From Gemmatimonadota bacterium (lineage in GTDB: Bacteria > Gemmatimonadota > Gemmatimonadetes > Gemmatimonadales > GWC2-71-9), in contig JBGPVE010000003.1 of NCBI GenBank assembly GCA_041491545.1, positions 1 to 32,508 on the forward strand: 32,508 nt of DNA, in the 5' to 3' direction. Within the stretch, counting starts at the first letter, position 1; each line of letters opens with the position of its first letter. Positions 10,242-32,508 of this stretch are shown here, piece after piece. The notes under the pieces are model-generated. The model searched no databases. It had not been told where the DNA came from and was given only the letters and a program-made list of their open reading frames with translations. The position numbers and the translations under genes were made by a program.

Positions 10242-11498
10242 CTACATATTCTCGACCATGGCCCGCGCAAACCCGCTGGTCGATACAAGGGTGGCGCCGG
10301 TCATCAGCCGCTCGAAATCGTACGTGACCTTGCGCTGGGCGATGGTCCGATCGAGCGACGCGATGATCAGATCCGCCGCCTCGGGCCAGCCCATGTACCG
10401 AAACATCATCTCCCCCGACAGGATGAGCGACCCCGGATTCACCTTGTCCTGGCCCGCGTAACGCGGCGCCGTCCCGTGGGTGGCCTCGAACACGGCGTGC
10501 CCGGTCAGGTAGTTGATGTTGGCGCCCGGCGCGATCCCGATCCCGCCCACCTGCGCCGCGAGCGCGTCCGAGATGTAATCGCCGTTGAGGTTGAGCGTGG
10601 CGATGACGCCGTACTCCCGCGGGCGCGTGAGGATCTGCTGCAGGAACGCATCGGCGATGACGTCCTTGATGACGATGCCGTTGGGCAGCTTGCACCACGG
10701 CCCACCGTCCACCTCGGTGGCTCCGTATTCGTCCTTGGCCACCTGGTAGCCCCAATCGCGGAAGGCGCCCTCGGTGAACTTCATGATGTTCCCTTTATGG
10801 ACCAGCGTCACGCTCTGATATCCCTGCGCCACCGCGTAGTCGATCGCCGAGCGGATCAAGCGCTTGCTGCCGTCCTCCGACACCGGCTTGATTCCGATGG
10901 CGCTCGACTCCGGAAAGCGGATCGACTGCGCACCGAGCTCCCGCTGCAGGAAGTCGATCAGCCTCCGCGCCTCCGGGGACCGCGCCTTGTACTCGATTCC
11001 GGCGTAGATGTCTTCGGTGTTCTCCCGGAAGATCACCATATTGACGTCTTGCGGCGCCTTGACAGGCGAGGGCACCCCCTCGAAATACCGCACCGGGCGC
11101 ACGCAGGCGTAGAGATCGAGCTTCTGTCGCAGTGCCACGTTGAGCGACCGGAAGCCGCCGCCCACCGGCGTGGTCAGCGGGCCTTTGACCGCCACGAGAT
11201 GGTGATCGATCGCCATCAACGTGTCGTCGGGCAGCCAACTGTTGACCTGGTTCTTCGCTTTTTCGCCGGCGAGCACCTCGAACCATACGATGCGGCGGTC
11301 GGCGCCGTATGCCTCACGAACGGCGGCGTCGAAGACAAGCTTGGCGGCGCGCCAGATATCCGGGCCGGTGCCGTCGCCCTCGATGAACGGAATGATCGGA
11401 TAGCTCGGCACCTGCAACCGCCCATCGCGCATCGTGATCGATTCGCCTTCGGCGGGTGCCCGGAGCGCTTTGTAGACGGGTGCGGAAACGGAAGCCAT
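10242..11498 (-). CDS. icd: NADP-dependent isocitrate dehydrogenase (E. coli-type dimeric)
   Basis: [32 protein letters not shown] (contains the AceK-target Ser), [22 protein letters not shown] and FEATHGTAP. Confidence 0.97.
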
Positions 11499-11551
11499 GG
11501 GAGCCGTGATGGTTGGAGAATGAGCGACCGCTCTAAAATAGCCGAGCGCCG

Positions 11552-13273
11552 ATGAACGGCAACGGTCGGGCCGAGCGTGCGGCGGCGATGATCATGGCCG
11601 AGTTCCAAGGCTATGGCGCCGCTTTCTCGGCGATCACCTGCCGCGCCAAACATCGCTTCGAGACCCGCGACTGGCGCGGAACCCAGAGCGACGCGGCCGC
11701 CCGGCTCGCGCTCTACCGCCGCCACGTCGACGAGCTGGTCATCGATCTCGGTCAACTCCTCGGCTCCGCCCTGCCCGACCGAGCGACTTGGGCGCGGATC
11801 CGCTCCATCTACGCCGGGCTGTTCGAAGGCCGGCACGACGCCGAGCTAGCCGAGACGTTCTTCAATTCCACCAGCCGGCGGGTCCTCGGCACGGTCGGCG
11901 CCGACCCACTCGTCGAGTTTCTCGGCTTTCCCGCGAGCGGCCCGCTCGAGCGCACCGGGCCCATGATCTTCGACACCTATCGCGACGACGGGACCATCCA
12001 CCGGCTCATCCAGCGGTTGCTCGCCGGCTGCGCCTGGAGCGTGAGCTACGAGGACCTCGAGCGCGACGCGGCGCTGGTGGCTGAGGCGGTGGACGCCAGG
12101 CTCCGCGAGATGGACTGGGCCGACGGGCCGGTCGAGATCGATCTGCTTCGGGCGCCGTTCTATCGAAACAAAGGCGCGTATCTCGTGGGCCGGATCCACT
12201 GCGGCCTCGAGCCGATCCCGCTGGTGCTGCCTTTGATCCACGGGGAGCACGGTGTCGTCGTCGACGCCGTCTTGCTCACCCAGGACGAAGCGAGCGTCGT
12301 CTTCGGCTTCAGCTGGTCGTACTTCTTCGTCGACGCGCCCCATCCCCGCGGGCTCATCACGTTCCTCAATTCCATCATGCCCAACAAGCGGGTCGACGAA
12401 TTGTACACGTCGATCGGGCACAGCAAGCACGGCAAGACCGAGCTCTACCGCAGTCTCATGCGTCATCTGGAGGGGCCGGATGCCAGATTCGCCTTCGCCG
12501 AAGGCGACGAAGGCATGGTGATGGGGGTCTTCACCCTGCCCTCGTTCAACGTGGTCTTCAAGATCATCAAGGACACGTTCATCGCGCCGAAGAACACCAC
12601 GCGGAAGGCGGTGATGGACAAGTACCACTTCGTCTTCCAGCACGATCGGGTGGGCCGGCTGGCCGACGCCCAGGAGTTCGAGCAGTTGGAGTTTCGCCGC
12701 CGCTGCTTTCCCGACGACTTACTCGCCTACCTGCTCCGCGTCACGGGCGGCAGCGTGCAGGTGGACGGCGAACGGATCGTGGTGCGCCACCTCTACACCG
12801 AACGGCGCGTCACGCCGCTCAATCTCTTCCTGGAGCAGGCCGACGATGCCGCGGCGCGGGACGCGATCTTGGACTATGGAAACGCGATCAAGGATCTGGC
12901 GGGGGCGGACATATTCACCGGGGACATGTTGCTCAAGAACTTCGGCGTGACGCGTAACGGACGGGTGATCTGCTACGACTACGACGAGCTCTGCCTGCTC
13001 CAGGAGTGCAGCTTCCGCCGAATCCCGCCGCCGCGCGACTTCGATGACGAGTTCGCCGCCGAGCCGTGGTTTCACGTCGGCGAGCACGACATCTTTCCGG
13101 AGGAGTTCAGCGCCTTTCTCGTGCCGGCCGGGAGGCTGCGGGAGACCTTTCTCGCGGCCCACGGCGACCTGCTGACGGTGGATCTCTGGAGGAGCGTGCA
13201 GCAGCGGCTGGGCACCGGGGAGATCTTCGACTTTTTCCCTTATAAGCAGAACCGCCGCCTGCACCGGCCGTAG
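11552..13273 (+). CDS. aceK: Bifunctional isocitrate dehydrogenase kinase/phosphatase
   Basis: [64 protein letters not shown] and YDYDE. Confidence 0.96.
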
Positions 13274-16281: not shown

Positions 16282-17058
16282 GTGCCCCACACCGCCCCTC
16301 CCAGCATCGACCTGAACGCCGATCTCGGCGAAGGATTCGGGGTCTGGCCCGCCTCGGCCGATCGGGAGTTATTGTCGCTCGTGACGTCCGCCAGCATCGC
16401 CTGCGGCTTTCACGCCGGGGACCCCGTGCTCATGCGGAGCACCGTGGCGGAGGCAGCCCGCCTGGGCGTCGTCATCGGCGCACACCCCGGCTATCCGGAT
16501 CTCCAGGGTTTCGGCCGGCGCGACCTCGCCGCCTCGCCCCGGGAAGTCGGCGCGTACGTGATCTACCAGGTCGGCGCGCTGGCTGCCTGCGCGGCCGCCG
16601 CCGGATCGCGGGTGCGCTACGTGAAGCCGCACGGCGCGCTCTATAATCGTGCGGCGCGCGATCTCGAGATCGCCCGAGCCATCGCCGAAGCGGTACGCCT
16701 GGTGGATCGCTCGCTCGCATTGCTGGGCTTGGCGGGCAGCGAGATGATACGCGCGGCGGAGGAGGCCGGGCTCGAAGCCGTGCCGGAAGCGTTCATCGAT
16801 CGCGGCTATCTCTCGGACGGCTCGCTGGTACCGCGCGGCGCTCCGAACGCGCTGATCGAGGATCCCGCGGCCGCGGCGAATCGCGCGCTACAACTGGTGC
16901 GGGACCGGCGGGTGCAGGCCGTCGACGGGACGGTGGTCCTCATCGCCGCGCGGTCGCTCTGCGTACACGGCGACGGCCCGAGTGCAGTGACTCTCCTTCG
17001 CGCGGTACGTGGGCGCCTCGAGGCCGAAGGGGTCACGCTCGCGCCATTCGCGCCGTGA
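16282..17058 (+). CDS. pxpA: 5-oxoprolinase subunit A (LamB/YcsF family)
   Basis: IDLNADLGEGFG, IACGFHAGDP, GAHPGYPD..GFGRR, VKPHGALYN and CVHGD. Confidence 0.95.
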   Translation: MPHTAPPSIDLNADLGEGFGVWPASADRELLSLVTSASIACGFHAGDPVLMRSTVAEAARLGVVIGAHPGYPDLQGFGRRDLAASPREVGAYVIYQVGALAACAAAAGSRVRYVKPHGALYNRAARDLEIARAIAEAVRLVDRSLALLGLAGSEMIRAAEEAGLEAVPEAFIDRGYLSDGSLVPRGAPNALIEDPAAAANRALQLVRDRRVQAVDGTVVLIAARSLCVHGDGPSAVTLLRAVRGRLEAEGVTLAPFAP

Positions 17059-17711
17059 GCGACCCGCCGCACTTTGCCCCGCTCGGCGATTCGGCGCTCA
17101 CCATCCGGTTTGGCCGAGGCATCGATCCCCGCCTCAACGCACGGGTCACCGCGGCGGCGTACGGAATCCGGGAGCTCGCCCTCCCGGGCGTCCTCGACGT
17201 GGTGCCCGCCTACGACTCCTTAGCGGTCTTCTTCGATCCACTCGCGCTCGATCCACGGCTGCTCGAGGAGCGCCTGCGCGGCGCGATCGGGCAGGGAAAC
17301 AGCGCGGCGCCCGGCGTCGGCACCGGCCGAACCCACCTCGTGCCGGTGCGCTACGATGGCCCGGACCTCGAGTGGGTCGCCGCGCAAGTCGGGCTCTCGC
17401 GGGACGAGGTCATTCGTCGCCATGCGGAGCCGACGTACCAGGTGTACTTCCTCGGGTTCGTGCCCGGCTTTGGCTATCTCGGTCCCCTCGATCCCAGTCT
17501 GGTCCTTCCCCGTCGCTCCGAGCCGCGCCGGCGGGTGCCTCCAGGCAGCGTCGCCATCGCGGGTGCGCAGACCGGCATCTACCCGCTCGAGACGCCGGGC
17601 GGATGGCATCTTCTCGGGCGGACCGATCTCGTGCTCTTCGACGCGCAACGCGAGCCACCCAGTCTTTTCGCGCCGGGCGACCACGTGCACTTCGTGCCGG
17701 TGGCGTCGTGA
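17055..17711 (+). CDS. pxpB: 5-oxoprolinase subunit B (KipI/allophanate hydrolase 1)
   Basis: PLGDSAL, VVPAYDS, GFVPGFGYL, GSVAIAG.QTGIYP.ETPGGW. GTGA overlap with pxpA. Confidence 0.95.
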   Translation: MSDPPHFAPLGDSALTIRFGRGIDPRLNARVTAAAYGIRELALPGVLDVVPAYDSLAVFFDPLALDPRLLEERLRGAIGQGNSAAPGVGTGRTHLVPVRYDGPDLEWVAAQVGLSRDEVIRRHAEPTYQVYFLGFVPGFGYLGPLDPSLVLPRRSEPRRRVPPGSVAIAGAQTGIYPLETPGGWHLLGRTDLVLFDAQREPPSLFAPGDHVHFVPVAS

Positions 17712-18661
17712 TCACAGTCATCAAGGCCCCGCCGTTCGCCACGGTACAGGATCTGGGACGCAGCGGGCACAGGAGCGTGGCGGTTCCTCCGGCGGGCGCG
17801 CTCGATCGTCGCGCTATCCAGATCGGCAATCTGCTGGTCGGCAACGAGACCGGTGCCGCCGCGGTCGAATGGGCCATCGGCGCCGGAGAGATTCGCTTCG
17901 ACTGCCGCACGACCGTGGCACTCACCGGCGCCTCCGCCGACGTCGAGCTGGCCGGCCGGGTGGCATTGCCCCATGCGGCGCTCAATGTGGTACCGGGAGA
18001 CACGCTGCGCGTCAATCGATTGGTCCAGGGGAGTTGGCTCTACATCTGTGTCGCCGGCGGGATCGAGGTGCCGCCCGTGCTCGGGAGCCGATCGACCTAT
18101 CTGCCGGGATCTTTCGGCGGCGTGGCCGGACGCACCCTTCGCGCGGGGGACCGGCTCCCGATCGGAACGCCCGCTCGCCCAAGACTCGCGGGCGCCGGTG
18201 AGAGTGAGCGCGCCGGCGAGATCACCGATTGGGGTACCCCGCATTCCGCGGCGCCTCTCGCAGTCCTGGCAGGCCCAGACCGCCGGTTTCTGCCGGACGC
18301 CGAGTGGGCACGGTTCCTCGATACCGAGTTTCGGGTCTCCAACGCCGTGAATCGATCGGGATACCGACTCCACGGACCGGCGTTTCACCCCGACGCGCCC
18401 GCCGATCTCCCTTCGGTGCCCACGTGCGCGGGCGCCATTCAGATTCCGGTCGATGGCAACCCGATCGTGCTCATGCCCGATGGACCGACGGTGGGTGGCT
18501 ACCCGATCGTCGCGGTCATCATCTCGACTGAAATCGGCCGGCTGGCGCAGCGGCGCCCGGGAGAGGGAGTTCGCTTTCACCAGGTCGAGCTTGCCGCCGC
18601 GCGCGATGCATTGCGTCGAGACGCGGCCGCTCTCGAGCGGCTCGCGCGCGCCAGCTCATGA
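17708..18661 (+). CDS. pxpC: 5-oxoprolinase subunit C (KipA/allophanate hydrolase 2)
   Basis: TVQDLGR.G, GALD, LGSRSTY, R.GYRL.G, GAIQIP.DGNPIVL..DGPTVGGYP. GTG 17708 forms a GTGA overlap with the pxpB stop. Confidence 0.93.
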   Translation: MITVIKAPPFATVQDLGRSGHRSVAVPPAGALDRRAIQIGNLLVGNETGAAAVEWAIGAGEIRFDCRTTVALTGASADVELAGRVALPHAALNVVPGDTLRVNRLVQGSWLYICVAGGIEVPPVLGSRSTYLPGSFGGVAGRTLRAGDRLPIGTPARPRLAGAGESERAGEITDWGTPHSAAPLAVLAGPDRRFLPDAEWARFLDTEFRVSNAVNRSGYRLHGPAFHPDAPADLPSVPTCAGAIQIPVDGNPIVLMPDGPTVGGYPIVAVIISTEIGRLAQRRPGEGVRFHQVELAAARDALRRDAAALERLARASS

Positions 18662-21058: not shown

Positions 21059-21898
21059 ATGCACCCGTCGAAACCCGATTTTCCCGTGATCGATCTGCAC
21101 AGCCACCTGGTTCCCGCCGTGGACGACGGCGCCGCCACCGTCGAAGAAGCCCTCGACTCGCTTCGCTCGCTCCACTCAGAGGGTGTCACCGCACTGGTCA
21201 CCACCCCGCACCTCATGCTCCCACGGCTGGACACCGCCGCGGCCATCGACCGCGAGCTGGAGCGGCACCGCCGGGCGTTCGAGCGGTTGCTCACGGCGGC
21301 CGACCAGGAAGAGGGCCTGCCTGAGCTGGAGTTGGGTCAGGAGATCTGGGCTTCGGACGCGGCTATGATCGAACGGGTGCTCCGCCGAACGGACGTGGGC
21401 CTGGCCGAGACGCGGTATTTGCTGGTGGAGTTCGGCTTTGTCCTGCTGGGGACCCACACCGACGTGATCGAGGCGGTGCTGGCGGCCGGGCGGCAGATCG
21501 TCATCGCGCACGCCGAGCGGTATCAGTATCCGCTGGCCGTCGATCCGATCGAGACGGCGCACGCCTGGCGGGAGCTAGGCGCGCTGCTCCAGATCAACGC
21601 GGGGAGCCTCACCGGGCACTACCGCGAGTCCAATCCGCAGTCGCAGACGCTTGCCTGGCGCCTCATCGATGAGGGATTGGCGGATCTGATCGCGACCGAC
21701 CACCACGGGTCGCGGCGGGTTGGCGTGTCGCCACTCGAGGCATGGCAGGCGCTCGAGGCGGCGGGACGAGCCGGCCAAGCGGAGATGCTGCTGCGTGAAA
21801 TTCCGGAACGAATCTGGCGCGATGAGCCGGTGATAGCCGCCGGAGCGGCCACCCGCGCCGCGCTCAGTACCAGCCGATCGGCTTCTCGTCGAGATTGA
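21059..21898 (+). CDS. PHP-family protein-tyrosine phosphatase (CpsB/CapC/YwqE-like)
   Basis: IDLHSHLVP.VDDGA, TTPH, GQE, YLLVEF, IAHAERY, LQINAGSL.G and ATDHH. Confidence 0.9.
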   Translation: MHPSKPDFPVIDLHSHLVPAVDDGAATVEEALDSLRSLHSEGVTALVTTPHLMLPRLDTAAAIDRELERHRRAFERLLTAADQEEGLPELELGQEIWASDAAMIERVLRRTDVGLAETRYLLVEFGFVLLGTHTDVIEAVLAAGRQIVIAHAERYQYPLAVDPIETAHAWRELGALLQINAGSLTGHYRESNPQSQTLAWRLIDEGLADLIATDHHGSRRVGVSPLEAWQALEAAGRAGQAEMLLREIPERIWRDEPVIAAGAATRAALSTSRSASRRD

Positions 21899-23366
21899 TG
21901 TAGACCTGCTTGGTCTCGAGGTACTCGTCGACTCCCCAGTGCCCCAACTCACGACCGAACCCGGAAGACTTGTAGCCGCCCCAGGGTGCTTCGACGAACG
22001 TCGGCTGCATGTGATTCACCCACACGATTCCAGCCTCCAACGCCTTCACCACCCGGAATGCCTTGAAGATGTCGCGGGTCCAGACGGCGGCCGCCAAGCC
22101 GTACGGCGTCGCGTTGGCGATCCGGATCGCGTCCGCCTCGTCCTTGAAGGGGATCACGCTCATCACCGGACCGAAGATCTCCTCCTGCGCGATGCGCGCG
22201 GAGTTGTCCACGTCGTAGAAAATCGTCGGCTCGACGTACCAGCCCTTGGCGTGCTCCTTCGGCACCCCGCCACCTAGCGCGACCTTCGCTTCCCGCCGGC
22301 CGATCTTCTGGTACTCGACGACCCGATCGCGCTGTGCCGCGCTCACCAGCGGCCCCATCTTGCTGGCGCGGTCGAGTCCGCTCCCGACTTTGATGGTCTT
22401 TGCCTTGGCGACCGCCGCGTCGAGAAACTTCTTGTAGATGTCCTTCTGCACCAGCACGCGGCTGCCGGCGGAGCACACCTCGCCTTGGTTGATGAAGACG
22501 CCGAAGAGCGCGCCATCCACGGCGTTCTCGAAGTCGGCGTCGCTGAAGAAGATGTTGGGCGATTTGCCCCCCAGCTCGAGTGAGACGCGCTTGAGCTGAT
22601 CGGCGGCGCTCCGCATGATGAGCTTGCCCACCTCGGCGCTGCCGGTGAACGCGATCTTGCGTGCGTCGGGATGGGCGACCAGCGGAGCCCCAGCGCCGGG
22701 CCCGTCCCCGGTGACGACGTTCACCACGCCGGGCGGCAGTCCGACCGACTCGAAGTCCTCCGCCAGCTTGAGAATCGAGAGCGGGGTCTGCTCCGCCGGC
22801 TTCAGAACGACGGTGCAGCCGGCCGCGAGCGCGGGCGCGATCTTCCACGCCGCCATCATCAGCGGGTAGTTCCAGGGAATGATCTGACCGGCCACGCCCA
22901 TCGGCTCCCGCATCGCGAACGCCACCGCGTCCGCCGGCACGGGCAATACCTCCCCATTGATCTTCGTGGCGAGGCCGCCGTAATACTCGAAACAGGTGGC
23001 GGTATCGTCCATGTCGAACTCGGACTCGGCGATCGGCTTGCCCGAGTTGAGGGTCTCGAGCTCCGCCAGCTCGGCGCGGCGGACGCGAATCCGTTCGGCG
23101 AGTCGAAAGAGCACCCGGCCTCGTTCCTGGGCCGTCACCGCCTTCCAGCCGCCGTAGAAGGCCCGCTTGGCAGCCTTCACGGCACGGTCGACGTCCTCCG
23201 ATCCGGCGGCCGGGCAGGTCGCGATCACCCCCTCGGTCGCGGGGTCGTACACCTCGAAAGTCTTGCCGCTCTTTGCTTCTACGAACCTGCCGTCGATGTA
23301 CATCCGGTAGGCGGTCACCGCGCGTCGCGCGGCGGGCCGCTTTGGGGCCTTCGCTGCAGTCGTCAT
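21864..23366 (-). CDS. Aldehyde dehydrogenase, betaine/aminoaldehyde dehydrogenase-like
   Basis: IIPWNYPL, KPAEQTP, FTGS, LELGGKSP, catalytic NQGEVCSAG, EEIFGPV and PWGGYKSSGFGRELG. Aminoaldehyde specificity is inferred from these motifs and the gene context. Confidence 0.9.
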   Translation of the reverse strand: MTTAAKAPKRPAARRAVTAYRMYIDGRFVEAKSGKTFEVYDPATEGVIATCPAAGSEDVDRAVKAAKRAFYGGWKAVTAQERGRVLFRLAERIRVRRAELAELETLNSGKPIAESEFDMDDTATCFEYYGGLATKINGEVLPVPADAVAFAMREPMGVAGQIIPWNYPLMMAAWKIAPALAAGCTVVLKPAEQTPLSILKLAEDFESVGLPPGVVNVVTGDGPGAGAPLVAHPDARKIAFTGSAEVGKLIMRSAADQLKRVSLELGGKSPNIFFSDADFENAVDGALFGVFINQGEVCSAGSRVLVQKDIYKKFLDAAVAKAKTIKVGSGLDRASKMGPLVSAAQRDRVVEYQKIGRREAKVALGGGVPKEHAKGWYVEPTIFYDVDNSARIAQEEIFGPVMSVIPFKDEADAIRIANATPYGLAAAVWTRDIFKAFRVVKALEAGIVWVNHMQPTFVEAPWGGYKSSGFGRELGHWGVDEYLETKQVYINLDEKPIGWY

Positions 23367-23398
23367 CGTTCGATTCCTCTAGACCCGATCAATCCCCG

Positions 23399-24637
23399 TC
23401 AAGCGGCAGGCACGAGAAAGGGTACGGTCGTCTCCTGGGGCAGATCCCGCATCGACATGGTGTCGTCGCGGATATACCATGGCATCCCCGCCGAGCCCAG
23501 CCGGTCCAAGAACGGATCGGGGTCCAGCTGTTCCGGCGATATGACGCCGATGCCGGACCAGATGCCCTCAGCGATGAGCCCGGCCGCGATGACGGGCGGG
23601 ATCCCCGTCTGATACGCGGTGGCCTGAACGCCAAGCTCGGCGTAGACCCGCTCGTGATCGCAGATGTTGTAGATGTAATACGCGCGTGGCTTCCCGTCCT
23701 TGAACCCGCGGGCCAGCGTGCCGACGCAGGTCTTCCCGCGGAGGCGGCCGGCAAGGTCGTTGGGCTCGGGCATCAGCGACACGACCACGTCCCGCGGTCG
23801 CACTTCCACGTCGCCGACTTCGACGAGATCCTTGCGGGAGAGGCCGAGGCGCCACATGACCCGCAGGGTTTCGACCGTGACGTCGTCCATGCAGAGCTTG
23901 AAGTCGACGGTCCGGGTCCGCGGGAAGAACCGCGGCAGGGTCTTCGACTCCTCGTGATCGACGTAGAAGCAGTTGAGCGTGCCCAGCTCGGGAAACACGA
24001 ACGGCTCGAGTCCGCTGAGCGGCTCTTCCAAGTGGTAGCGACCGTCCCGCCAGGAGACGGCCTTGCAGAGACATTCATCGATGAAGACCCATGGGCTGAA
24101 CGCGGCGATGAAGCCGTTGTGGCCCTGGCATACCGAATTGTCGCCGTCGCGGATGCGCAGCTCGGTCACCTCATCCAGGAGGTGCTTCGCCGCATACGCG
24201 GCATAGACGTTGGAGGTACCCGGGTCGGCTCCCATACCGAGGAGCGCGAGTCGGCCGGCCGCCTTGAACTCGGCGTCCAGCGCGAACTGATCTTCCAGCT
24301 TGGGGATTCCGTCGGCATCGGTGCCGCCGCTGGCCATGTCGATATAGTCGCACCCGGCGTCGAGACAGGCGCGCATGACGACCAGATTGGTGACGGGCAG
24401 TGCCGCGTTCAACAGAACGGTGGTACCGGTGTCGCGGAGGACGCGGGCGAGATCGGTACGGCTCGCCGCATCGAGGGTAACGGCCCGGACCCTTGGGTCA
24501 TCAAGCCGGTCCGCGAGTAGGGCTGCGCGGGCGGACACCGCGTCGGCGACGACGAGTTGCTCGACGTTCGCCTCCTGCACGAATTTGAGAGCGGACACGG
24601 TCCCCACCGCGCCGGCCCCGAGGACCAGGACTTTCAC
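23399..24637 (-). CDS. Saccharopine dehydrogenase-family enzyme, carboxy(nor)spermidine dehydrogenase-like
   Basis: Rossmann VLVLGAGAVG, NAALP, YID.A, GMGADPG, AYAAKHLLDEV, HEE and QATAYQTGIP resemble CASDH/CANSDH. GAGGAG SD lies 3 nt before the GTG. Confidence 0.8.
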   Translation of the reverse strand: MKVLVLGAGAVGTVSALKFVQEANVEQLVVADAVSARAALLADRLDDPRVRAVTLDAASRTDLARVLRDTGTTVLLNAALPVTNLVVMRACLDAGCDYIDMASGGTDADGIPKLEDQFALDAEFKAAGRLALLGMGADPGTSNVYAAYAAKHLLDEVTELRIRDGDNSVCQGHNGFIAAFSPWVFIDECLCKAVSWRDGRYHLEEPLSGLEPFVFPELGTLNCFYVDHEESKTLPRFFPRTRTVDFKLCMDDVTVETLRVMWRLGLSRKDLVEVGDVEVRPRDVVVSLMPEPNDLAGRLRGKTCVGTLARGFKDGKPRAYYIYNICDHERVYAELGVQATAYQTGIPPVIAAGLIAEGIWSGIGVISPEQLDPDPFLDRLGSAGMPWYIRDDTMSMRDLPQETTVPFLVPAA

Positions 24638-24800
24638 AAACTCCTCTTTTCATTGTTGGCGCGGCACCGGTCCGGGAGACGAGCTCCCTCGCCCCCGCCG
24701 CAGATGGGGGCTCGCAGCTCAAGGAGAAAGTCAGCTGCGAGAGTGGACCCTCCGCTTGGTCGGAGGATGCAAACACGCCCTGCCGGGAGGCAGGCCGCAT
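24638..24800 (-). ncRNA. Candidate structured cis-regulatory 5' leader (riboswitch-like)
   Basis: Five consecutive hairpins plus closing helices lie between an extended -10 and the SD. One loop carries CUCCUU, complementary to the SD. It matches no riboswitch class I recognise. Confidence 0.5.
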
Positions 24801-24804
24801 AGCC

Positions 24805-24835
24805 ACTCTACCACCGACCCCCCACCCCTTGTCCA
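24805..24835 (-). promoter_or_regulatory. Putative sigma70 extended -10 promoter of the dehydrogenase-ALDH operon
   Basis: Minus strand reads TGGACA-N19-TAGAGT with a TGn extension. The spacer is long. Confidence 0.4.
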
Positions 24836-24933
24836 GCCCCCCCGAAAGCACCCAGAAGGGACAAAGTTGTGCCTGGCTCTCCGGCCGTTTGGTGCAACGT
24901 CTTGCAGGGAAGCGCCTTACAGAGGCCGGCTCC

Positions 24934-25037
24934 GCGGATCGGTGGCCGGCGGAGCGCGCTGCGGTTCGCGAGCAGGGGGGTGGGTTGTAACAGAAGCGGC
25001 TGCTCACCGACGCGCGCTCCGCCAGCCACCGATCCGC
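24934..25037. repeat. 26-bp inverted repeat forming a long hairpin
   Basis: GCGGATCGGTGGCCGGCGGAGCGCGC (24934-24959) pairs with 25012-25037 at 25 of 26 positions. Inner pairings are CGGT/ACCG and GAGCAG/CTGCTC. Confidence 0.9.
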
Positions 25038-25162
25038 TGCGCCCGAAGGGCGGGCACGCCAATGCGGGCATTTTGATCGACCGGATTCGCTGCACGTACA
25101 TGGACGGGGCGCATGGCGGGCGGTTGGGGGCGATGGCATCTTTGCTCATCCACGAGGATGCG

Positions 25163-27133
25163 ATGCACGACTCCGACGACAAGCGATTGGGGATGGACCG
25201 CGCGATTCCACGTCGAGACTTTCTCAACGGCGTGGCGCTCGCCGTGGGGGGAGCACTGCTCTCGCACGGGACGTCGATGTCGCCCGGTGCGCTCCTCGCG
25301 CTTCAGGGCGACGACTTCGCGCCGGAGCGCGCGCGGGGTTATTACCCGCCGGCGCTCACGGGACTTCGCGGGAGCCACCCGGGGTCGTACGAGGTCGCGC
25401 ACCGGCTGCGTGACGGCGGACTCGATGCGATGATGCGGAGCGCGCGTCCCAGCCGCGAAACGTACGATCTGATCGTCGTGGGCGGCGGCATCAGCGGCCT
25501 CGCCGCCGCGCACTTCTACCACCAGTCTGCGGGGCACGGCGCGCGGGTCCTCGTCCTCGACAATCACGACGATTTCGGCGGCCATGCCAAGCGGAACGAG
25601 TTCCGCTGCGACGGGCGGCTCCTGATCGGCTACGGGGGAACCCAATCGATCGACGCACCCTCGCGCTACAGCGCCGAGGCGCGCGGACTCCTGACGGAGT
25701 TGGGGATCGACGTGCGGAAGTTCCATCAGGCCTTCGATCAGACGTTCTACAGCTCCCGCCATCTCAAGCCCTCGGTGTTTCTCGGCCGCGAGACGTTCGG
25801 CGCCGATGGGCTGATCGTGGGTTTCGGCCGGCGGCAGGCCTCCGACGCGACTCGTGCCCAGTTGCTGAAGGGTGCTCCGCTCTCCGACGCGGCGCGGGCC
25901 GGCATCGAGCGCGTGTTGTCGGACAAGACCGACCACCTCCCCGGTCTCACATCCGACGCCAAGAAGGCTCGCCTCGCGCGCACGAGCTACCGCGACTATC
26001 TGCTGCAGGTGCTGCGGGTCCATCCGGACACGATCCCGTTCTTCCAGACATGGACCCACGATCTGTACGGCGTGGGCATCGACGCCGTGCCGGCGCTCGA
26101 CTGCTGGGGTCTCGACTTTCCCGGATTCGAGGGGCTCAATCTGGCGCCGGGCGCAGCACCCGGCATCTCGCGCACCGCCGAGCCGCACGAGGAAGAGCCG
26201 TACATCTTCCACTTCCCCGACGGGAACGCGTCGGTCGCGCGGCTGCTGGTGCGGCGTCTCGTGCCCGGCGCGGCACCGGGTCACACGATGGAGGACATCG
26301 TGACGGCGCGGGTGGACTACGCCCGGCTCGACCTGCCGGGCTCATCGACCCGAATCCGGCTCAACAGCACGGCCATTCGGGTGCGGCACGTCGGCGACCC
26401 GTCCAATGCGCACGAGGTGGAGGTGACGTACGCACGCGGAGGGAGAGTGCGCACGGTGCGGGCGGGCGGGTGCGTGCTGGCCTGCTGGAACGGGATGATT
26501 CCCTACCTCTGCCCCGAGCTGCCGGCGCCGCAGAAAGAGGCGCTCGCATACGGGGTGAAGGTGCCGCTGGTCTACACCAACGTGGCGCTCCGCAACTGGC
26601 GTGCGTTCGCGAAGCTCGGCATATCCTCGATCACCGCGCCGGGGAGCTACTACTCAGCCGCGAGCCTCGATTTTCCGGTGAGTCTGGGCCAGTATCACTT
26701 CTCGCGCTCGCCGGACGAGCCGATCGTGCTGCACGTCCTGCGGACGCCGTGCAGCCCGGGGCTCCCCGCGCGGCAGCAACACCGGATCGGCCATGCGGAG
26801 CTGCTGACGACGTCGTTCCAGACCTTCGAGCGACACCTTCGGGACCAGCTCGGCCGGATGCTGGTGGGGGGCGGGTTCGATCCGGCGCGGGACATCGCCG
26901 GGATCACCGTGAACCGTTGGCCGCACGGCTACGCGTACGAGTACAACTCGCTGTGGGATCCGCTGTGGCCGGCGGATCAGCAGCCCTGCGTGATCGGCCG
27001 CAAGCCGTTCGGGCGGATCACGATCGCGAACTCCGACGCCGGCGCGTACGCCTACACCAACTGCGCCATCGACCAGGCGCATCGCGCGGTTGGCGAGGTC
27101 GTCGCGGCCGTTGGAGTCGCGCACCGAAGCTGA
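25163..27133 (+). CDS. spdH: Spermidine dehydrogenase SpdH-like flavoprotein with Tat signal
   Basis: PRRDFLNG Tat motif, YYPPALTGLRGSHPGSYEVAH, VVGGGISGLAAA, LDNHDDFGGHAKRNEF, GYGGTQSI, FPDGNAS, NRWPHGYAY and IANSDAGA, all characteristic of the P. aeruginosa SpdH family. GAGGA SD before ATG 25163. Confidence 0.85.
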   Translation: MHDSDDKRLGMDRAIPRRDFLNGVALAVGGALLSHGTSMSPGALLALQGDDFAPERARGYYPPALTGLRGSHPGSYEVAHRLRDGGLDAMMRSARPSRETYDLIVVGGGISGLAAAHFYHQSAGHGARVLVLDNHDDFGGHAKRNEFRCDGRLLIGYGGTQSIDAPSRYSAEARGLLTELGIDVRKFHQAFDQTFYSSRHLKPSVFLGRETFGADGLIVGFGRRQASDATRAQLLKGAPLSDAARAGIERVLSDKTDHLPGLTSDAKKARLARTSYRDYLLQVLRVHPDTIPFFQTWTHDLYGVGIDAVPALDCWGLDFPGFEGLNLAPGAAPGISRTAEPHEEEPYIFHFPDGNASVARLLVRRLVPGAAPGHTMEDIVTARVDYARLDLPGSSTRIRLNSTAIRVRHVGDPSNAHEVEVTYARGGRVRTVRAGGCVLACWNGMIPYLCPELPAPQKEALAYGVKVPLVYTNVALRNWRAFAKLGISSITAPGSYYSAASLDFPVSLGQYHFSRSPDEPIVLHVLRTPCSPGLPARQQHRIGHAELLTTSFQTFERHLRDQLGRMLVGGGFDPARDIAGITVNRWPHGYAYEYNSLWDPLWPADQQPCVIGRKPFGRITIANSDAGAYAYTNCAIDQAHRAVGEVVAAVGVAHRS

Positions 27134-28525
27134 TCAGGGCGGATCGTTCCAGTTCCGCGCCGGCCCGGGGCCCGAGATGTTCGGGTTGGTGTTCCGCTCG
27201 CTGAGCGGGTAGGTCAGTCGGCGCGGGATCACACCGCCGGGAGCGGGCTGCAGGTTGGGGATGTTGGTCCGCTTCCAGTCCTGCCATGTCTCGACGTTCT
27301 GAAAGAGCTGCACGTACTTCTCCGTCATGATCGCGACGAGCAGTGGATCGCTGGGTCCGGGCGTGCCGGGTGCCGGCACGGCCGTGCCGACGCCCGCCTC
27401 CGTCCAGACGGCCTGAAGCGCGCCGCGGGCCTGGTTGGACGCGTCCGTCGGATCGACCTGATACGAGGCCTCGGCCAGGTTGAGCTGGTTCTCCGCCCAG
27501 GTGACGAGCGGCTGAGCGAACGCGCCGTCCAGCCGGGTGGCGCTGAGCGTAGAGACGTCGCTCGGCGAGACCGACACGCCGGGAGCGGCCCCGGCGAACG
27601 TCGTGCCCGATGGATCGCTCCCGATCGGCGCGAAGTACAGCGGGAGCCGCGGATCCTGCGGCGTGCCGTTCAACGTATTCACCATGAACGCGCCGCCCAC
27701 CACGAACCCCGGGAAGATGCCCTGGAAGACGCTCCAGAGATTGGAGGAGGTGGCGGCCTGGCCGCTCAATCCCAGCGCGTAGTCTTCTCCCAGTTGAATG
27801 CCGCTCAGCGCGGCGGTGACCGCCTTGGCGTATGCCGTCGGGTCGCGCCGAGCGGTGTGGACGTAGTAGCGCGCCTTGAGCGTGTTCGCGAGTCTGGTCC
27901 ACTTGGCGGCGTCGCCGCCGTAGATCAGATCGTTGCCGCCGGGTCCCTTGTTGCGGGGGCCCGACGCCGCCAGGAACGTGATGGCGCTATCGAGCTTGGC
28001 TTGCAGCGCGGCATAGACGTTCTGCTGCGGGTCCGGCTTGGGCGCGGGCTTGGCCGAGTTCGCCGCCTCGGAGTACGGCACGTCGCCCCAGAGATCGGCG
28101 GCGGTGCCGACGGCGTATGTCTCGAGAACCGAGGCCGTGCCCCAAAACACCGAGTCGCCGGCCTCGAGCGCGCGCCTCTGAATGGTTCGGAGATCGAGCA
28201 GGCCCGCGCCACCGTAAAACGACGACCAGTTGACGTAGTAGTCGTCCTCGGCGACCGAGTAGGTGCCGAGGGAGAGATACTGCGATTGGCCGGCGCAGCC
28301 CTGCATCCAGATGCAGATGGTGCGCGCCAGCCGGCTCTCGAGCTGCGCGCCGATGTTGACCTGCGAGGCGGTGAAGAGCGCCTGGTTCGAGGCGGAGGTC
28401 GGGTTGTTCGGGTCGTCCTGCAGCTTCGGCCCGGTGAGGAAGTCGCTGCAGCCCGCCAGGCTGACCGCCAGGCCGGCCGCGAAGACCGCCGAGAGCGAAG
28501 TGCGCACGGGTGTCGTCCCAGTCAT
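27134..28525 (-). CDS. SusD/RagB-family outer-membrane lipoprotein
   Basis: Lipobox LAG-C, DPNNP, DLWGDVPYSEA, DLIYGGD..KW...ANTLKAR, EKY, W.DW.RT and IPRRL.YP.SE...NPN. Confidence 0.93.
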   Translation of the reverse strand: MTGTTPVRTSLSAVFAAGLAVSLAGCSDFLTGPKLQDDPNNPTSASNQALFTASQVNIGAQLESRLARTICIWMQGCAGQSQYLSLGTYSVAEDDYYVNWSSFYGGAGLLDLRTIQRRALEAGDSVFWGTASVLETYAVGTAADLWGDVPYSEAANSAKPAPKPDPQQNVYAALQAKLDSAITFLAASGPRNKGPGGNDLIYGGDAAKWTRLANTLKARYYVHTARRDPTAYAKAVTAALSGIQLGEDYALGLSGQAATSSNLWSVFQGIFPGFVVGGAFMVNTLNGTPQDPRLPLYFAPIGSDPSGTTFAGAAPGVSVSPSDVSTLSATRLDGAFAQPLVTWAENQLNLAEASYQVDPTDASNQARGALQAVWTEAGVGTAVPAPGTPGPSDPLLVAIMTEKYVQLFQNVETWQDWKRTNIPNLQPAPGGVIPRRLTYPLSERNTNPNISGPGPARNWNDPP

Positions 28526-28538
28526 GGTCGGGGCTCCC

Positions 28539-31500
28539 TCAGCGGGTCAGTTGAACGGTGAACACGAACGACCGGGTCTGCGGATTGTTGAAGAAATCGA
28601 TCCCGCGAGCACCCGTCTCCGCCCCGACCAGATTCGTCTCGGGGTCCGCGCCGGAGTAGTTGGTCCAGGTCGCCAGGTTGCGGCCGGCGGCGCGCAGCTC
28701 GACGCCGCTCAACCCGAGCGTCTTGCTGACGAAGCTTCCGTGCAGCGCGTAGCCCACAGAGATCTCCCGCAGCTTGACGAAACTTCCGCTCTCGTAGAAC
28801 GGCTGCCCGATGGTGCTGCTGAAGGACCATCCGTAGTAGTTGGCGAAGAAATTCTGATCCAGCGTCGCGGCGGTGCCCGCGCCCGGGCCGGCGACGGCGC
28901 CCGGGAAGAAGCTGGTGCCGAAGACCACCGACTCGCCCCGCCGCGCGCTCTCCTGGGACGTGCCCACCGCATTGAGCGCGGCGCGGGTGCCGTTCCAGAC
29001 GGCGCCGCCGTGGCGCACGTCGAGCAATCCGGAGAACGAGAAGTTGCCGATCCGGACACCGCTCCGAATGGACCCGGTCCAGCGCGGGTTCGGGTCCGCG
29101 ATCACCCGCTGGGCGGGATCGAGCAACGGGAAACCCGGCCCCGCGCTCGGAATGCCGGCGCTGTTGGCGTAGTTGCCGTCGTCGATGAAGAGCGCGTTGC
29201 TCTGCTTCTGCGCCGCGCTGCAGTTGGCGTCGACGTTGTACGCGCTGCCGTCGTTGACGTTGGTCAGCACGACCCCGCGGCCGCAGCGTACGTAGTCGTA
29301 GTCGCGGAAGACGCCGATCTGCTCACCCACCTGGGCCACGACGGACGGACCGCCCTGGATGCCGGTGCCGTTCGCGCCACCGTAGCTCACGAAGTCGGCT
29401 CCGCGGAGATCCTGCACTCGATTCCGGTTCAAGCCGAAGACGAGACCGACATCCCAGGTGACGTTGCGCCGGGTGATCGGCCGGACGTTGAGTGAAAGCT
29501 CGACGCCGGAATTGCGGATCCGCGCCGCGTTGGCGCCCTCGACCGTGAAGCCGCTCGACGCCGCCACGGGAATCAGCAGGATCACATCCACCGACGTGCG
29601 CTTGTACCAGGTGAAGCTGAGGTCCGCCGCGTCCTTGAGGAAGCCGATGTCGACGCCGGCCTCCAGCTCGCGGGTGCGCTCGGGCTTGAGGTTCGTCGCG
29701 GGCTTGGTGTTGGGCGTGAAGAGACCGCCGAAACCGTTCTGACCGGAGAAGGTGCCGAAGGCGTCGAAGTCGTTGAAGATGCCCTGCTGGTAGATGGTGG
29801 CGCCGAGATACGGCGACGGCTCGGTGCCGACCTCGCCGTACGCCATGCGAGCCTTCCCGTAGGAGAGCAGCCCGCCCAGGTTGCCGATCGCCTTGGTGAA
29901 CTGCCACGCGGCGCTCGCGCTGGGAAACCAGGCCCACTGGTTCTCGGTGGAGAAGGTCGAGTGCCCGTCGTAGCGGAGCCCGCCTTTCACGTAGAGCTGA
30001 TCCCAGAGATCCGCGGTCGCCTGGCCGAAGAATCCCGCCGTGCGCACCTTGGTCTCGAAGTCCTGCGGCGGCGGCTGCGAGGCGGTGTTGGTGAGGCTGA
30101 ACGGCTGGTCGGCGATCATGCCATTCCCGACTTGGCCCTGCTGCCGGAAGCTCCGCGTGTTCAGGTTCTGCCCGAGGGTAAAGGTGCCTTTGTACTTGGG
30201 ACTCACCGTGTAGCTCGCGGTGGCGGTGAGGTTGTGGTCCCACTGCGTGTTGATCAGGGTCTGCTTGATCACCTGTCCCCGCGGATCGGGGGTGTTCGAG
30301 CTGGAGGGCGGCTGCCCCTGCAGCCGGCTGTCCTGGCCGTCGTCCACGCCGAGGGTATAGTTGACCGCGAGCCAGGAGCGGGGCGCCCAGTCGGCGGAGA
30401 TGTTGCCGATCGTGCGGCCGACGGTCGAGGAGCTGACCGCGTTGAGCGCCGACCAGAGCGGGTTGTCGTACCCTCGGGTCGAGTCCTCGTTGGCGAACGA
30501 CGGATTCGGAAAGCGGAACGAGCGCTGCACGTGATCCTCGGTGGAGGTCACGTAGGCGAGGTCGTTGAATTCGGGCGGTGTCCGCCAGCCGCCCCAGGTG
30601 ATGCCGCTGAAGTTGAAGCCCTTCTGGATGGCGAACTGGCGCGAGTTGGTGTACATCACGTTGCCGCCGAGCTTCAGGTTGTCGAAGACCCGGTGGTCAC
30701 CCTTGAGCCGGAACGACTTGCGACCGAAGTTGTCGTTGTCGCCCGGCACGGTGCCGTTCTGGTCGAGCAGCGCGCCGGACACGTAGAACGTCGTGCGGTC
30801 GTTGCCGCCCGAGATGGTCAGCGTGTGATCGAGGCCGACCCCGGTCTCGTACAGCTCGCGGGCGTGGTCGTACGTCGGCGTTCCCGCCGCGAGCGCCGGC
30901 CCCCAGCTATCCTCGGTGGCGTAGCAGTCCAGGGCCGGCGTGGCGGTGCTGGAGGACGCGGCGCAGGGGTCCGCCTGGGGAACGCCGAATTCGTCGGCGT
31001 CGCCCTGGCCGAACTTGCGCTGCAGCGACGGGAAGCGGTTGATGGTGGTGAACGAGAGCGAGCTGCGCAGCGAGTACTGGGTCTGGCCGCGGCCGCGCTT
31101 GGTGGTGATCAGCACCACGCCCTGCCCCGCCCTGGCGCCGTAGATCGCGCCGGCCGCGGCGCCCTTCAGGATCTCGATCGACTCGATGTCGGCGGGGTTG
31201 ATGTCGGCCGCCCGGTTGGGGGACGACACGCCGCCCTGCGGGCCGCCGGTCTGGGGGTCGAGCGACGCCGTGGTGGCGGTGGAGTTGTCGATCGGCATGC
31301 CGTCCACCACGAAGAGCGGCTGGCCCTCGCCCCCCAGCGTGTTGGTGCCGCGGATCCGGATCGCGGCTGACGCCCCCGGATCGCCCGAAGCGGAGACGAC
31401 CTCGACATTCGGCGCCTTGGCGGCGATGGCGTTCACCACGCTCGCCTCGTTGGCGCGGGAGATGGCGGTCGAATCGACGTTGTTGCGCACGCTGCCGATC

Positions 31501-31904
31501 TTCTCGACCTCGGAGGAGGTGCCGGCGCCGGTCACCACCAGCTCGCCGAGCTGGAGCGGATTCGACGCCAGCACGAAGTCGTGGGTCTGCTCGGCCGCGA
31601 TGAGGGTCAGCTCGACCGACTCGGGCTTGTAGCCGATGGCGCGGGCGGTCACCGTGACCGGCTGCCCGGTGATCCTGCCGGCGGGCAGCGCGACGGTGTA
31701 GCTGCCGTCGGTGCGGGTCACGCCGCCGACGCCGAGCGACGGGATGGCCACGCTGGCGCCGGCGAGGGGATTGCCGTCCTCGTTGGTCACTCGGCCGATG
31801 AGCGCGCCCGGCACCTGCGCGCGGAGGGTGGCCGCCGGGACCGCGGCGAGCGCGAGCACGGCAATCCCGGCGGCGAACAATGTCGCACAACGCTTGGAAT
31901 TCAC
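28539..31904 (-). CDS. SusC/RagA-family TonB-dependent outer-membrane transporter
   Basis: Signal peptide, N-terminal extension domain, LGELVVTG, PLFVVDG.PI, DINPADIESIEILKGAAAGAIYGARA..GVVLITTKRG, LKPE, N.GVE.SL, FVKLREIS and Y.G.DPE. Start is likely GTG 31904; the track uses ATG 31946. Confidence 0.95.
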   Translation of the reverse strand: MNSKRCATLFAAGIAVLALAAVPAATLRAQVPGALIGRVTNEDGNPLAGASVAIPSLGVGGVTRTDGSYTVALPAGRITGQPVTVTARAIGYKPESVELTLIAAEQTHDFVLASNPLQLGELVVTGAGTSSEVEKIGSVRNNVDSTAISRANEASVVNAIAAKAPNVEVVSASGDPGASAAIRIRGTNTLGGEGQPLFVVDGMPIDNSTATTASLDPQTGGPQGGVSSPNRAADINPADIESIEILKGAAAGAIYGARAGQGVVLITTKRGRGQTQYSLRSSLSFTTINRFPSLQRKFGQGDADEFGVPQADPCAASSSTATPALDCYATEDSWGPALAAGTPTYDHARELYETGVGLDHTLTISGGNDRTTFYVSGALLDQNGTVPGDNDNFGRKSFRLKGDHRVFDNLKLGGNVMYTNSRQFAIQKGFNFSGITWGGWRTPPEFNDLAYVTSTEDHVQRSFRFPNPSFANEDSTRGYDNPLWSALNAVSSSTVGRTIGNISADWAPRSWLAVNYTLGVDDGQDSRLQGQPPSSSNTPDPRGQVIKQTLINTQWDHNLTATASYTVSPKYKGTFTLGQNLNTRSFRQQGQVGNGMIADQPFSLTNTASQPPPQDFETKVRTAGFFGQATADLWDQLYVKGGLRYDGHSTFSTENQWAWFPSASAAWQFTKAIGNLGGLLSYGKARMAYGEVGTEPSPYLGATIYQQGIFNDFDAFGTFSGQNGFGGLFTPNTKPATNLKPERTRELEAGVDIGFLKDAADLSFTWYKRTSVDVILLIPVAASSGFTVEGANAARIRNSGVELSLNVRPITRRNVTWDVGLVFGLNRNRVQDLRGADFVSYGGANGTGIQGGPSVVAQVGEQIGVFRDYDYVRCGRGVVLTNVNDGSAYNVDANCSAAQKQSNALFIDDGNYANSAGIPSAGPGFPLLDPAQRVIADPNPRWTGSIRSGVRIGNFSFSGLLDVRHGGAVWNGTRAALNAVGTSQESARRGESVVFGTSFFPGAVAGPGAGTAATLDQNFFANYYGWSFSSTIGQPFYESGSFVKLREISVGYALHGSFVSKTLGLSGVELRAAGRNLATWTNYSGADPETNLVGAETGARGIDFFNNPQTRSFVFTVQLTR

Positions 31905-31997
31905 GGCTCTTCCTTGGCCAAAGAAGACAGCAACGGCGAGACGCATCGCATCGGAGGAAACGATTGTGTCGCTTGGAAGAACTTGGGGGTTTCGGCG

Positions 31998-32026
31998 AAG
32001 GTACGGGCCGTTCGGAGGGCTGTCAA
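31998..32026 (-). promoter_or_regulatory. Sigma70 promoter of the susCD operon
   Basis: Minus strand has a perfect TTGACA, a 17-nt spacer, then TACCTT. Confidence 0.65.
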
Positions 32027-32054
32027 TAACGCTCGCGGCGCGCGTGCGACGGGT

Positions 32055-32060
32055 TACAAT
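32055..32060 (+). promoter_or_regulatory. Possible -10 element for gabT
   Basis: TACAAT 63 nt upstream of ATG 32124, with no good -35. Confidence 0.3.
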
Positions 32061-32123
32061 CCAAGCACCATCCGCCCACGGCCTTTACGCGGCATGAGCG
32101 GCATTCATTCCGTGGAGTTTCGT

Positions 32124-32508
32124 ATGGGACGCACGATCAAGCTGGTCACGCCGATTCCCGGACCGGAGAGCCAGGCGCTCCTGGCGCGGCGCGCGGCGGC
32201 AGTGCCCAGGGGGGTGCCGGCGGTGACGCCGATCGCGGTAGTGCACGCGGAGAACGCGGTGCTCACCGACGCGGACGGCAACCGGCTGATCGATTTCGGC
32301 GGCGGCATCGGCGTGGTCAACGTGGGGCATCGGCATCCGGCGGTGGTGGAGGCGATTCGGGCGCAGCTCGACCGGTTCATCCACGTCTGCTTTCCGGTGT
32401 CGAGCTACGAGCCGTACGTCGCGCTGGCCGAGCGGATGAACGCGGTGACGCCGGGCGCGCACGCCAAGCGGACCTTCTTCGTGAACAGCGGGGCGGAGGC
32501 GGTGGAGA
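32124..32508 (+). CDS. gabT: 4-aminobutyrate aminotransferase (class III PLP), 5' partial
   Basis: Manual translation gives MGRTIKLVTPIPGPESQALLARRAAAVPRGV...D.DGNRLIDFGGGIGVVNVGH...YEPYVALAE...FVNSGAEAVE. GGAG SD upstream. The ORF runs off the window end and is absent from the track. Confidence 0.9.
   Translation, partial: MGRTIKLVTPIPGPESQALLARRAAAVPRGVPAVTPIAVVHAENAVLTDADGNRLIDFGGGIGVVNVGHRHPAVVEAIRAQLDRFIHVCFPVSSYEPYVALAERMNAVTPGAHAKRTFFVNSGAEAVE

Follow-up and report, generated by a model that had tools for sequence, protein, structure and literature searches.

A SusC–SusD pair linked to polyamine catabolic genes in Gemmatimonadales as a candidate outer-membrane route for polyamine uptake

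The closest described counterparts of the locus reported here are the SusCD/RagAB pairs of Bacteroidota, and the systems used for comparison were the starch Sus, the levan and dextran utilisomes, RagAB, BT2261-2264, the BfUbb importer and PusCD (phospholipids). SusCD-like pairs had already been reported with glycan, peptide or protein (ubiquitin-homologue) and phospholipid cargo. The nearest catabolic system is the SpdH/KauB/GabT/GabD pathway of Pseudomonas aeruginosa (PMC9397018), and the ABC importers PotABCD and PotFGHI provide the comparison for import. Here we describe a susC-susD pair that lies among genes for polyamine and 4-aminobutyrate (GABA) catabolism on contig JBGPVE010000003.1 of a Gemmatimonadota metagenome-assembled genome (MAG). 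The contig was analysed over its entire length of 32.5 kb (hereafter the window; labelled G000:C3). It has a GC content of 65–72% and belongs to a MAG (G000) of 2.72 Mb in 283 contigs that is 92.5% complete.

The window pair resembled the Bacteroidota SusCD/RagAB pairs in its matches to SusC models, in the SusD fold and lipobox, in the position of susD after susC and in its placement within a catabolic locus. Unlike them, it was encoded by a member of the Gemmatimonadota, which does not agree with the Bacteroidota framing given to the locus in a preliminary description made from the sequence alone. The window locus also differed in having polyamine/GABA enzymes as neighbours and in lacking carbohydrate-active enzymes (CAZymes), SusE/F/G-like surface proteins and a hybrid two-component or extracytoplasmic function (ECF)/anti-sigma regulator at the locus. 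A scan of the window open reading frames (ORFs) upheld the claim of the preliminary description that no glycoside hydrolase, sulfatase or secreted peptidase is present among the locus genes. Polysaccharide utilisation loci are recognised by susCD together with CAZymes; no glycoside hydrolase, polysaccharide lyase, carbohydrate esterase or sulfatase was found in the window locus or in the scanned orthologous loci. The locus shared SpdH, an aminoaldehyde-type aldehyde dehydrogenase (ALDH) and a GABA-type transaminase with the P. aeruginosa pathway, and it differed from that pathway, as set out in the available text of PMC9397018, in that spdH was fixed beside susCD and, in relatives, beside a Pot-type ABC importer.

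Taken across related genomes, the gene context indicates that the susC-susD pair probably serves a polyamine catabolic module of some Gemmatimonadales as its uptake component in the outer membrane. Relatives of SusD and SusC were collected independently of SpdH by three routes. The first covered 41 relatives' genomes and the second 401 genomes sampled across the phylum, 27 of which encoded SusD at E ≤ 1e-80, all belonging to families f1 and f2. The third was a SusD-pattern scan of 185,579 species genomes, which reaches fairly close relatives only and returned 20 loci, all from Gemmatimonadota; metagenome contigs were added to this route by pattern scan and 80 loci were kept. Flanks of up to approximately 10 kb were screened by tblastn with the locus proteins of the window and of its relatives. 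Pfam and NCBIfam scans were carried out on ORFs from a simple GC3-based caller, which missed some genes and took a spurious opposite-strand ORF at window positions 16,282–18,661. SusC trees were built under LG+G4, without a mixture model, from rows with >85% query coverage and no stops. These criteria excluded the partial SusCs of G015, G017 and G357, whose loci had the same neighbours.

The window SusC fell in one clade in every tree, with SH-aLRT values of 98, 97 and 96 in quick trees of 23, 41 and 52 rows respectively; a more thorough 32-row tree gave ultrafast bootstrap 98 and SH-aLRT 97. This clade held 13 rows, from at least five named genera in two families, further MAGs and metagenome contigs (the window, G004, G009, G063, G143, G113, G366, the MAGs L109, L116 and L117, and the metagenome contigs L155, L162 and L177). 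The SpdH of L155 was identical to that of G133, so L155 represents the same organism. Polyamine/GABA genes neighboured the SusCD pair in all 13 rows and SpdH did so in 11, and none of the trees placed a SusC without polyamine/GABA neighbours inside the clade. On L162, a succinate-semialdehyde dehydrogenase (SSADH)-like ALDH gene adjoined the pair and the contig ended approximately 400 bases past susD. On L177, the adjoining genes encoded PotA, PotB, an ALDH and an SSADH-like ALDH, and a Sel1-repeat gene lay downstream. The comparison of neighbourhoods that the preliminary description had proposed for the closest SusC/SusD homologs was therefore favourable; PotD/PotA/PotB/PotC-like genes were also present in the relatives' loci.

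Three gene orders were found. In genera g1, g24, g73 and g75, susC was followed by susD, and spdH converged on the pair. The window showed this arrangement, with the stop codons of susD and spdH abutting and gabT divergent from susC, and the order susC-susD-spdH-SDH-ALDH (SDH being a saccharopine-dehydrogenase-family gene) was repeated in four other genomes of the same genus at 69–89% protein identity. The second order, in g69 and three MAGs, ran from susD and susC, both transcribed leftwards, through an SSADH-like ALDH gene divergent from susC (TIGR01780, 612.7 against a cut-off of 646), spdH, a DAO-type oxidase gene, a second spdH and the ortholog of the window ALDH gene (80–89% conserved) to the pot genes, with both spdH genes, the ALDH gene and the pot genes also transcribed leftwards; a flavin amine oxidase gene followed the pot genes in one such locus. 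In the third order, on a metagenome contig, pot genes, an ALDH gene and a leftward SSADH gene preceded rightward susC and susD. The G063 locus additionally carried a putrescine-aminotransferase-like gene (571.8 against a cut-off of 612), two further class-III aminotransferase genes and a DAO oxidase gene. The outer flanks varied even within the genus, with CpsB/FtsH in the window, the asparagine synthase AsnB in G004 and Rho in G009 and G015. A conserved core with shuffled order and changing flanks is the pattern of a functional unit. Among the same-genus genomes of the phylum sample, the SusD ortholog and SpdH were both present in G000, G009 and G015, and neither was found in G002 (97% complete).

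Residues 15–645 of the window SpdH aligned with residues 3–618 of P. aeruginosa SpdH (PDB 7d9f; E = 2.9e-165). In this alignment the positions of His54 (in EVAH) and His562 (in NRWPHGY), which PMC12564564 gives as the heme b ligands of the P. aeruginosa enzyme, were conserved, and the FAD dinucleotide motif VVGGGISG was present. The N-terminus carried a twin-arginine (Tat) motif, RRDFLNG, and the motif GMDRAIPRRDFLNG was common to the inspected orthologs, solitary SpdHs and the two second-family paralogs among them. SpdH is accordingly predicted to act in the periplasm, and since the motif is conserved on SpdH and on both second-family paralogs, the substrate of SpdH would have to reach that compartment. 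The enzyme converts spermidine to 1,3-diaminopropane and 4-aminobutanal, and spermine to spermidine and 3-aminopropanal, according to PMC7576179 and PMC9397018. For homologs below 50% identity, PMC12564564 describes the substrates as unknown. From its homology we infer that the window SpdH cleaves spermidine or spermine oxidatively.

SpdH was detected at E ≤ 1e-30 in 91 of the 401 genomes sampled across the phylum. Sixty SpdH loci were retrieved, of which 54 encoded a protein with ≥39% identity to the window SpdH, and most SpdH orthologs outside the linked loci stood without SusCD. Five of the 60 had only distant SusC-like matches (24–35% identity) and the remainder, apart from the loci with SusCD of the window clade, had none; four close SpdHs that lacked the SusCD link occupied unrelated contexts. 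In a quick tree of 67 SpdH rows, the SusCD-adjacent SpdHs grouped as a separate 10-row clade (SH-aLRT 98), which divided in two in agreement with the split of the SusC tree. Together, the SusC and SpdH trees indicate that the linkage arose once and was then co-inherited. In the g69-type loci, the second SpdH copy fell in another SpdH clade. L044 (8981–14,618), L047 (4618–10,718), L108, L109 and L116 each encoded a pair of SpdH paralogs that belong to separate SpdH clades and flank a DAO-type oxidase gene; the N-termini were read in L044 and L047, and there both paralogs had the Tat motif. Two periplasmic SpdH paralogs and extra amine oxidases in one family would fit the stepwise cutting of larger polyamines.

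The window SusC scored 527 against TIGR04056 (cut-off 368.25) and 53.8 against the SusC signature TIGR04057 (cut-off 46.2). It contained CarboxypepD_reg (residues 50–124), Plug (151–277) and TonB_dep_Rec_b-barrel (471–874) domains and is predicted to import its cargo in a TonB-dependent manner. The susD gene was directly downstream after a gap of 13 bases, and its product matched PF12771 (156.4 bits) and PF12741 (89.2 bits; cut-off 27 for each). The SusD lipobox LAGC (AVSLAGCSDF) was read from the sequence, and Cys26 was invariant in 9/9 orthologs. An AF2 model of SusD (pLDDT 79.5, pTM 0.85) had the helical, TPR-based SusD fold, and Foldseek matched it to PDB entries including 5j5u, 4q69 and 5fq6 at TM 0.69–0.74. 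Aromatic content and net charge did not set the polyamine-locus clade apart among 22 SusD and 23 SusC proteins. Eight SusC positions were invariant in the clade and absent from its sister clade, none of them a gained acidic residue. Four of these were in the plug between residues 229 and 238 (L, P, Q and G against F, G, T and Q in the sister clade), which hints that cargo differs between the two clades and gives no pointer to polyamines.

Two congeners, G004 and G009, carried approximately 4 kb between gabT and susC that encoded a PotD-like binding protein, PotA and two permeases. These pot genes were on the strand of susC and ended 245 bases before it; none was found between gabT and susC in the window. 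As in PotABCD/PotFGHI, the relatives' loci combined a PotA above its family cut-off (TIGR01187, 378 against 355.6), a PotD/F-like binding protein of the SBP_bac_8 family and two BPD_transp_1-type permeases. The binding protein was a distant one, its nearest solved relatives including PotD, PotF and SpuD/E at E-values of 1e-20 to 1e-25 only and no equivalog model being passed. Elsewhere in the host genome, contig G000:C231 (4.8 kb; loci L120 and L122) encoded a potD-potA pair that was 69% and 65% identical to that of G004. This pair was divergent from a second gabT-like gene (65%), mirroring the divergent layout of gabT and potD beside susC in the two congeners.

The window ALDH matched Pfam Aldedh with 607.6 bits. 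Its best NCBIfam rows were betaine-aldehyde dehydrogenase (602.8, cut-off 668.6) and aminobutyraldehyde dehydrogenase (505.5, cut-off 615), both below cut-off, and its nearest solved chains were betaine-aldehyde and aminoaldehyde dehydrogenases. Orthologs in related loci shared 80–89% identity with it, and we propose that it oxidises 4-aminobutanal or 3-aminopropanal. Approximately 136 N-terminal residues of the window aminotransferase were present on the contig, with a start codon at about 32,095 that was read from the sequence by hand. Its best rows were 4-aminobutyrate-2-oxoglutarate transaminases, below cut-off since the gene is truncated, and the fragment was 75–79% identical to the full-length gene of G004.

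The saccharopine-dehydrogenase-family protein (SDH-like) had been described as a dehydrogenase resembling carboxyspermidine dehydrogenase (CASDH). The family relationship stood, as the protein matched PDB 4ina (E = 1e-75) and the carboxyspermidine dehydrogenase 8deb (E = 1e-72) and has the fold of CASDH and carboxynorspermidine dehydrogenase (CANSDH). Identification as a true CASDH or CANSDH was rejected: the protein scored 214 bits against the carboxynorspermidine synthase model NF043000, where the cut-off is 800, and the partner NspC (TIGR01047) was not found in G000 (92.5% complete). It further differed from these enzymes in its catabolic setting and in its restriction to one genus, the gene being found only in the same-genus loci L024–L026 among the loci compared. 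It appears to be a distant relative of carboxy(nor)spermidine dehydrogenases with an uncertain, accessory role, which might lie in the oxidative cleavage of a secondary amine or in the handling of 1,3-diaminopropane.

The features of the locus are listed in Table 1. The six genes recognised in the preliminary description were confirmed at their positions by profile and homology searches. The remaining window genes encoded a sigma-54 two-component system, a hybrid histidine kinase, a lytic transglycosylase, isocitrate dehydrogenase and AceK, a disulfide oxidoreductase, parts of a 5-oxoprolinase, FtsH and a CpsB-like phosphatase. Isocitrate dehydrogenase and the AceK kinase/phosphatase were encoded divergently at 10,242–13,273, which constitutes a glyoxylate-bypass switch, and a LamB/YcsF (PxpA-like) gene followed by carboxyltransferase CT_A_B genes at 16,282–18,661 is likely a 5-oxoprolinase set.

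Table 1. Features of the susCD locus in the window (positions on contig JBGPVE010000003.1; a dot marks a feature without strand).
Feature	Position	Strand	Basis
Aldehyde dehydrogenase (ALDH), betaine-/amino-aldehyde type, NAD(P)-dependent	21864-23366	-	Pfam, NCBIfam, solved chains
Saccharopine-dehydrogenase-family enzyme (SDH-like)	23399-24637	-	Sacchrp_dh_NADP and Sacchrp_dh_C
Divergent intergenic region, 525 bases, between the SDH-like gene and spdH	24638-25162	.	Sequence
spdH, spermidine/spermine dehydrogenase, FAD and heme b	25163-27133	+	Homology to PDB 7d9f
susD, SusD-like outer-membrane lipoprotein, lid of the SusCD pair	27134-28525	-	PF12771, lipobox
susC, SusC/RagA-type TonB-dependent transporter	28539-31946	-	TIGR04056, TIGR04057
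Class-III aminotransferase, 5' part, GABA-transaminase-like (gabT)	~32095-32508, cut by contig end	+	Aminotran_3

The divergent intergenic region and the rest of the window gave no Rfam matches, and promoter and terminator signals in an intergenic scan did not exceed those of shuffled sequences. The region is unusually long at 525 bases, and its counterparts in orthologous loci shared C-rich tracts. Visual inspection of 11 loci revealed a sigma-70-like element (TTGACA-N17-TAnnTT) upstream of susC in five, namely the window (31,960–32,060), L117, L155, L162 and L177. The bases around this element were alike in the window, L117 and L155 (ATTGACAc/gCC ... GGTACnTTCGC).

Under the proposed scheme, the SusD lid and the TonB-powered SusC barrel would import spermidine, spermine or a polyamine that is longer or conjugated into the periplasm. 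Tat-exported flavo-heme SpdH would cut it there and pass electrons to an acceptor in the envelope. Transfer of the products, or of the uncut polyamine, across the inner membrane would follow; the PotD/PotA/PotB/PotC-like ABC importer of the same locus may be the carrier in relatives, and in the host genome the candidate potD-potA pair sits on another contig. In the cytoplasm, the aminoaldehyde ALDH would yield GABA or beta-alanine and the class-III aminotransferase succinate semialdehyde. In the second family, the SSADH-like ALDH encoded beside susC would finish the route to succinate.

The sister clade of SusCD pairs shared 59% SusC and 48–51% SusD identity with the window pair. Its members were G000:C48 (L028, 1–15,596), L030, L031, L033, L034, L110–L112, L114, L115 and L130. 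Where contigs were long enough, the neighbouring genes encoded a CrtO-like/Amino_oxidase flavoprotein, GbcA-like Rieske oxygenases, an amino-acid permease, an N-methyltryptophan/sarcosine-oxidase-like (MTOX-like) DAO (NF008425, 305.7 against a cut-off of 257), an Xaa-Pro dipeptidase (NF051886, 502 against a cut-off of 500) and an S9 peptidase. The sister locus may serve N-methylated amines or proline-rich peptides, which would also be non-glycan cargo. A homolog (76%) of the sister-clade CrtO-like flavoprotein lay beside gabT in the polyamine-type locus L041 (14,212–15,801; G063), so the two locus types share an accessory enzyme. On the metagenome contig L158 (2–8404), a more distant SusCD pair (44–46%) preceded genes for two class-III aminotransferases and an X-Pro dipeptidyl-peptidase, a further SusCD setting with an amine or peptide character.

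A more specific version of the polyamine-uptake reading is that the SusCD clade is a dedicated, TonB-energised importer of polyamines (trace spermidine or spermine, or long-chain polyamines) that feeds a periplasmic, respiration-linked SpdH, as one branch of a Gemmatimonadota SusCD radiation specialised on small nitrogen compounds in place of glycans; we offer it tentatively, its chances standing somewhat short of even. Gene identities, conserved linkage and predicted compartments are established. Several observations weigh against the proposed uptake role. The cargo of the pair, like every flux in the scheme, is read from gene context. The SusD model resembled SusDs associated with glycans, chitin and peptides to much the same degree, at 17–24% identity. 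The SusD and SusC proteins of the polyamine-locus clade were no more acidic than their paralogs (22 and 23 proteins), and only two SusD positions, F51 and G431, were invariant and specific to the clade, neither being acidic nor a notable aromatic gain. No polyamine signature emerged from the charge, the clade-specific residues or the modelled fold of SusD. The window genes lie on different strands and so do not form a single operon, and no shared operator was seen by eye upstream of susC and spdH (11 and 10 sequences). SusCD of the window clade was nearby in just 6 of the 60 SpdH loci, from which it follows that SpdH is independent of SusCD, and L177 had no SpdH within 2.9 kb downstream. As the linkage had a single origin, the 13 rows of the clade are related by descent and do not count as independent trials. 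In principle, free spermidine and spermine could pass through porins by virtue of their small size. Of the earlier interpretation of the region as a polyamine locus, the conserved gene context stood and the Bacteroidota framing did not; a CASDH role for the SDH-like gene found no support, and neither the SusD and SusC sequences nor the SusD model gave an indication of polyamine binding.

The alternative that survives best, which we regard as unlikely though credible, is that SusCD imports a larger nitrogen-rich compound and not a simple polyamine, with the polyamine/GABA enzymes processing its products. Such a compound might be a conjugated polyamine, a polyamine with an acyl or gamma-glutamyl group, a siderophore built on a polyamine, or a molecule resembling a peptide. 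Cargo that exceeds the size limit of porins is an established feature of SusCD systems, and the Xaa-Pro dipeptidase, S9 peptidase, GbcA-like Rieske oxygenase and MTOX-like oxidase beside the sister clade indicate that this SusCD radiation handles varied nitrogen compounds. The DAO-type oxidase, flavin amine oxidase and second SpdH added in second-family loci would suit a complex substrate. Against this, no amidase, esterase, peptidase or siderophore-handling gene was conserved in the scanned polyamine-type loci, and the sole constant periplasmic enzyme, SpdH, acts on free spermidine and spermine according to PMC9397018 and PMC7576179.

It is improbable that the adjacency merely reflects inherited gene order or shared regulation under nitrogen limitation, with SusCD importing an unrelated cargo such as peptides. 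With a single origin of the linkage, part of its conservation could be owed to descent; in the window, susCD, spdH and gabT form separate transcription units, susC has a sigma-70-like element of its own in the five loci described above, and BT2263, a peptide-associated SusD, was among the structural matches. However, the module has stayed intact across two families at approximately 50% SusC identity, through several rearrangements and changing flanks, every member of the clade has polyamine/GABA neighbours, and in two genomes pot genes that share the strand of susC have been inserted immediately before it.

That misassembly of a fragmented MAG produced the arrangement, as the 283 contigs and the absence from the window of the pot genes found in the gabT-susC gap of two congeners might suggest, is extremely improbable, because the gene order recurs in the four same-genus genomes and both key junctions were bridged, with >31 letters on each side, by contigs of public sediment-metagenome runs (spdH/susD, 27,133/27,134, in X1, X3 and X4; susC/gabT, 31,946 to ~32,100, in X1, X2, X3 and X4), one of which may be the source sample.

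The preliminary description had stated that no SusCD system with a role in polyamine use was known, and literature searches, read as listings and some full-text passages, likewise turned up no published link of SusCD or of a TonB-dependent transporter to polyamine import. In P. aeruginosa, spermidine is reported to induce none of the TonB-dependent transporter reporters (10.1101/2024.10.14.618150). Non-glycan cargo of SusCD is already known; a SusCD pair in a polyamine locus appears to be new.

Polyamines are abundant nitrogen- and carbon-rich compounds of soils and sediments, and their passage across the Gram-negative outer membrane is usually ascribed to porins. If the proposed role is correct, the pair described here would be the first active outer-membrane polyamine transporter, and the cargo range of SusCD would be widened to small polycations. 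It would also mean that nitrogen scavenging makes use of SusCD systems recruited outside the Bacteroidota, and would advise caution against treating every susCD pair in metagenome surveys as a marker of glycan use. For the Gemmatimonadota, a common yet poorly understood soil phylum, it would provide a concrete nutritional niche.

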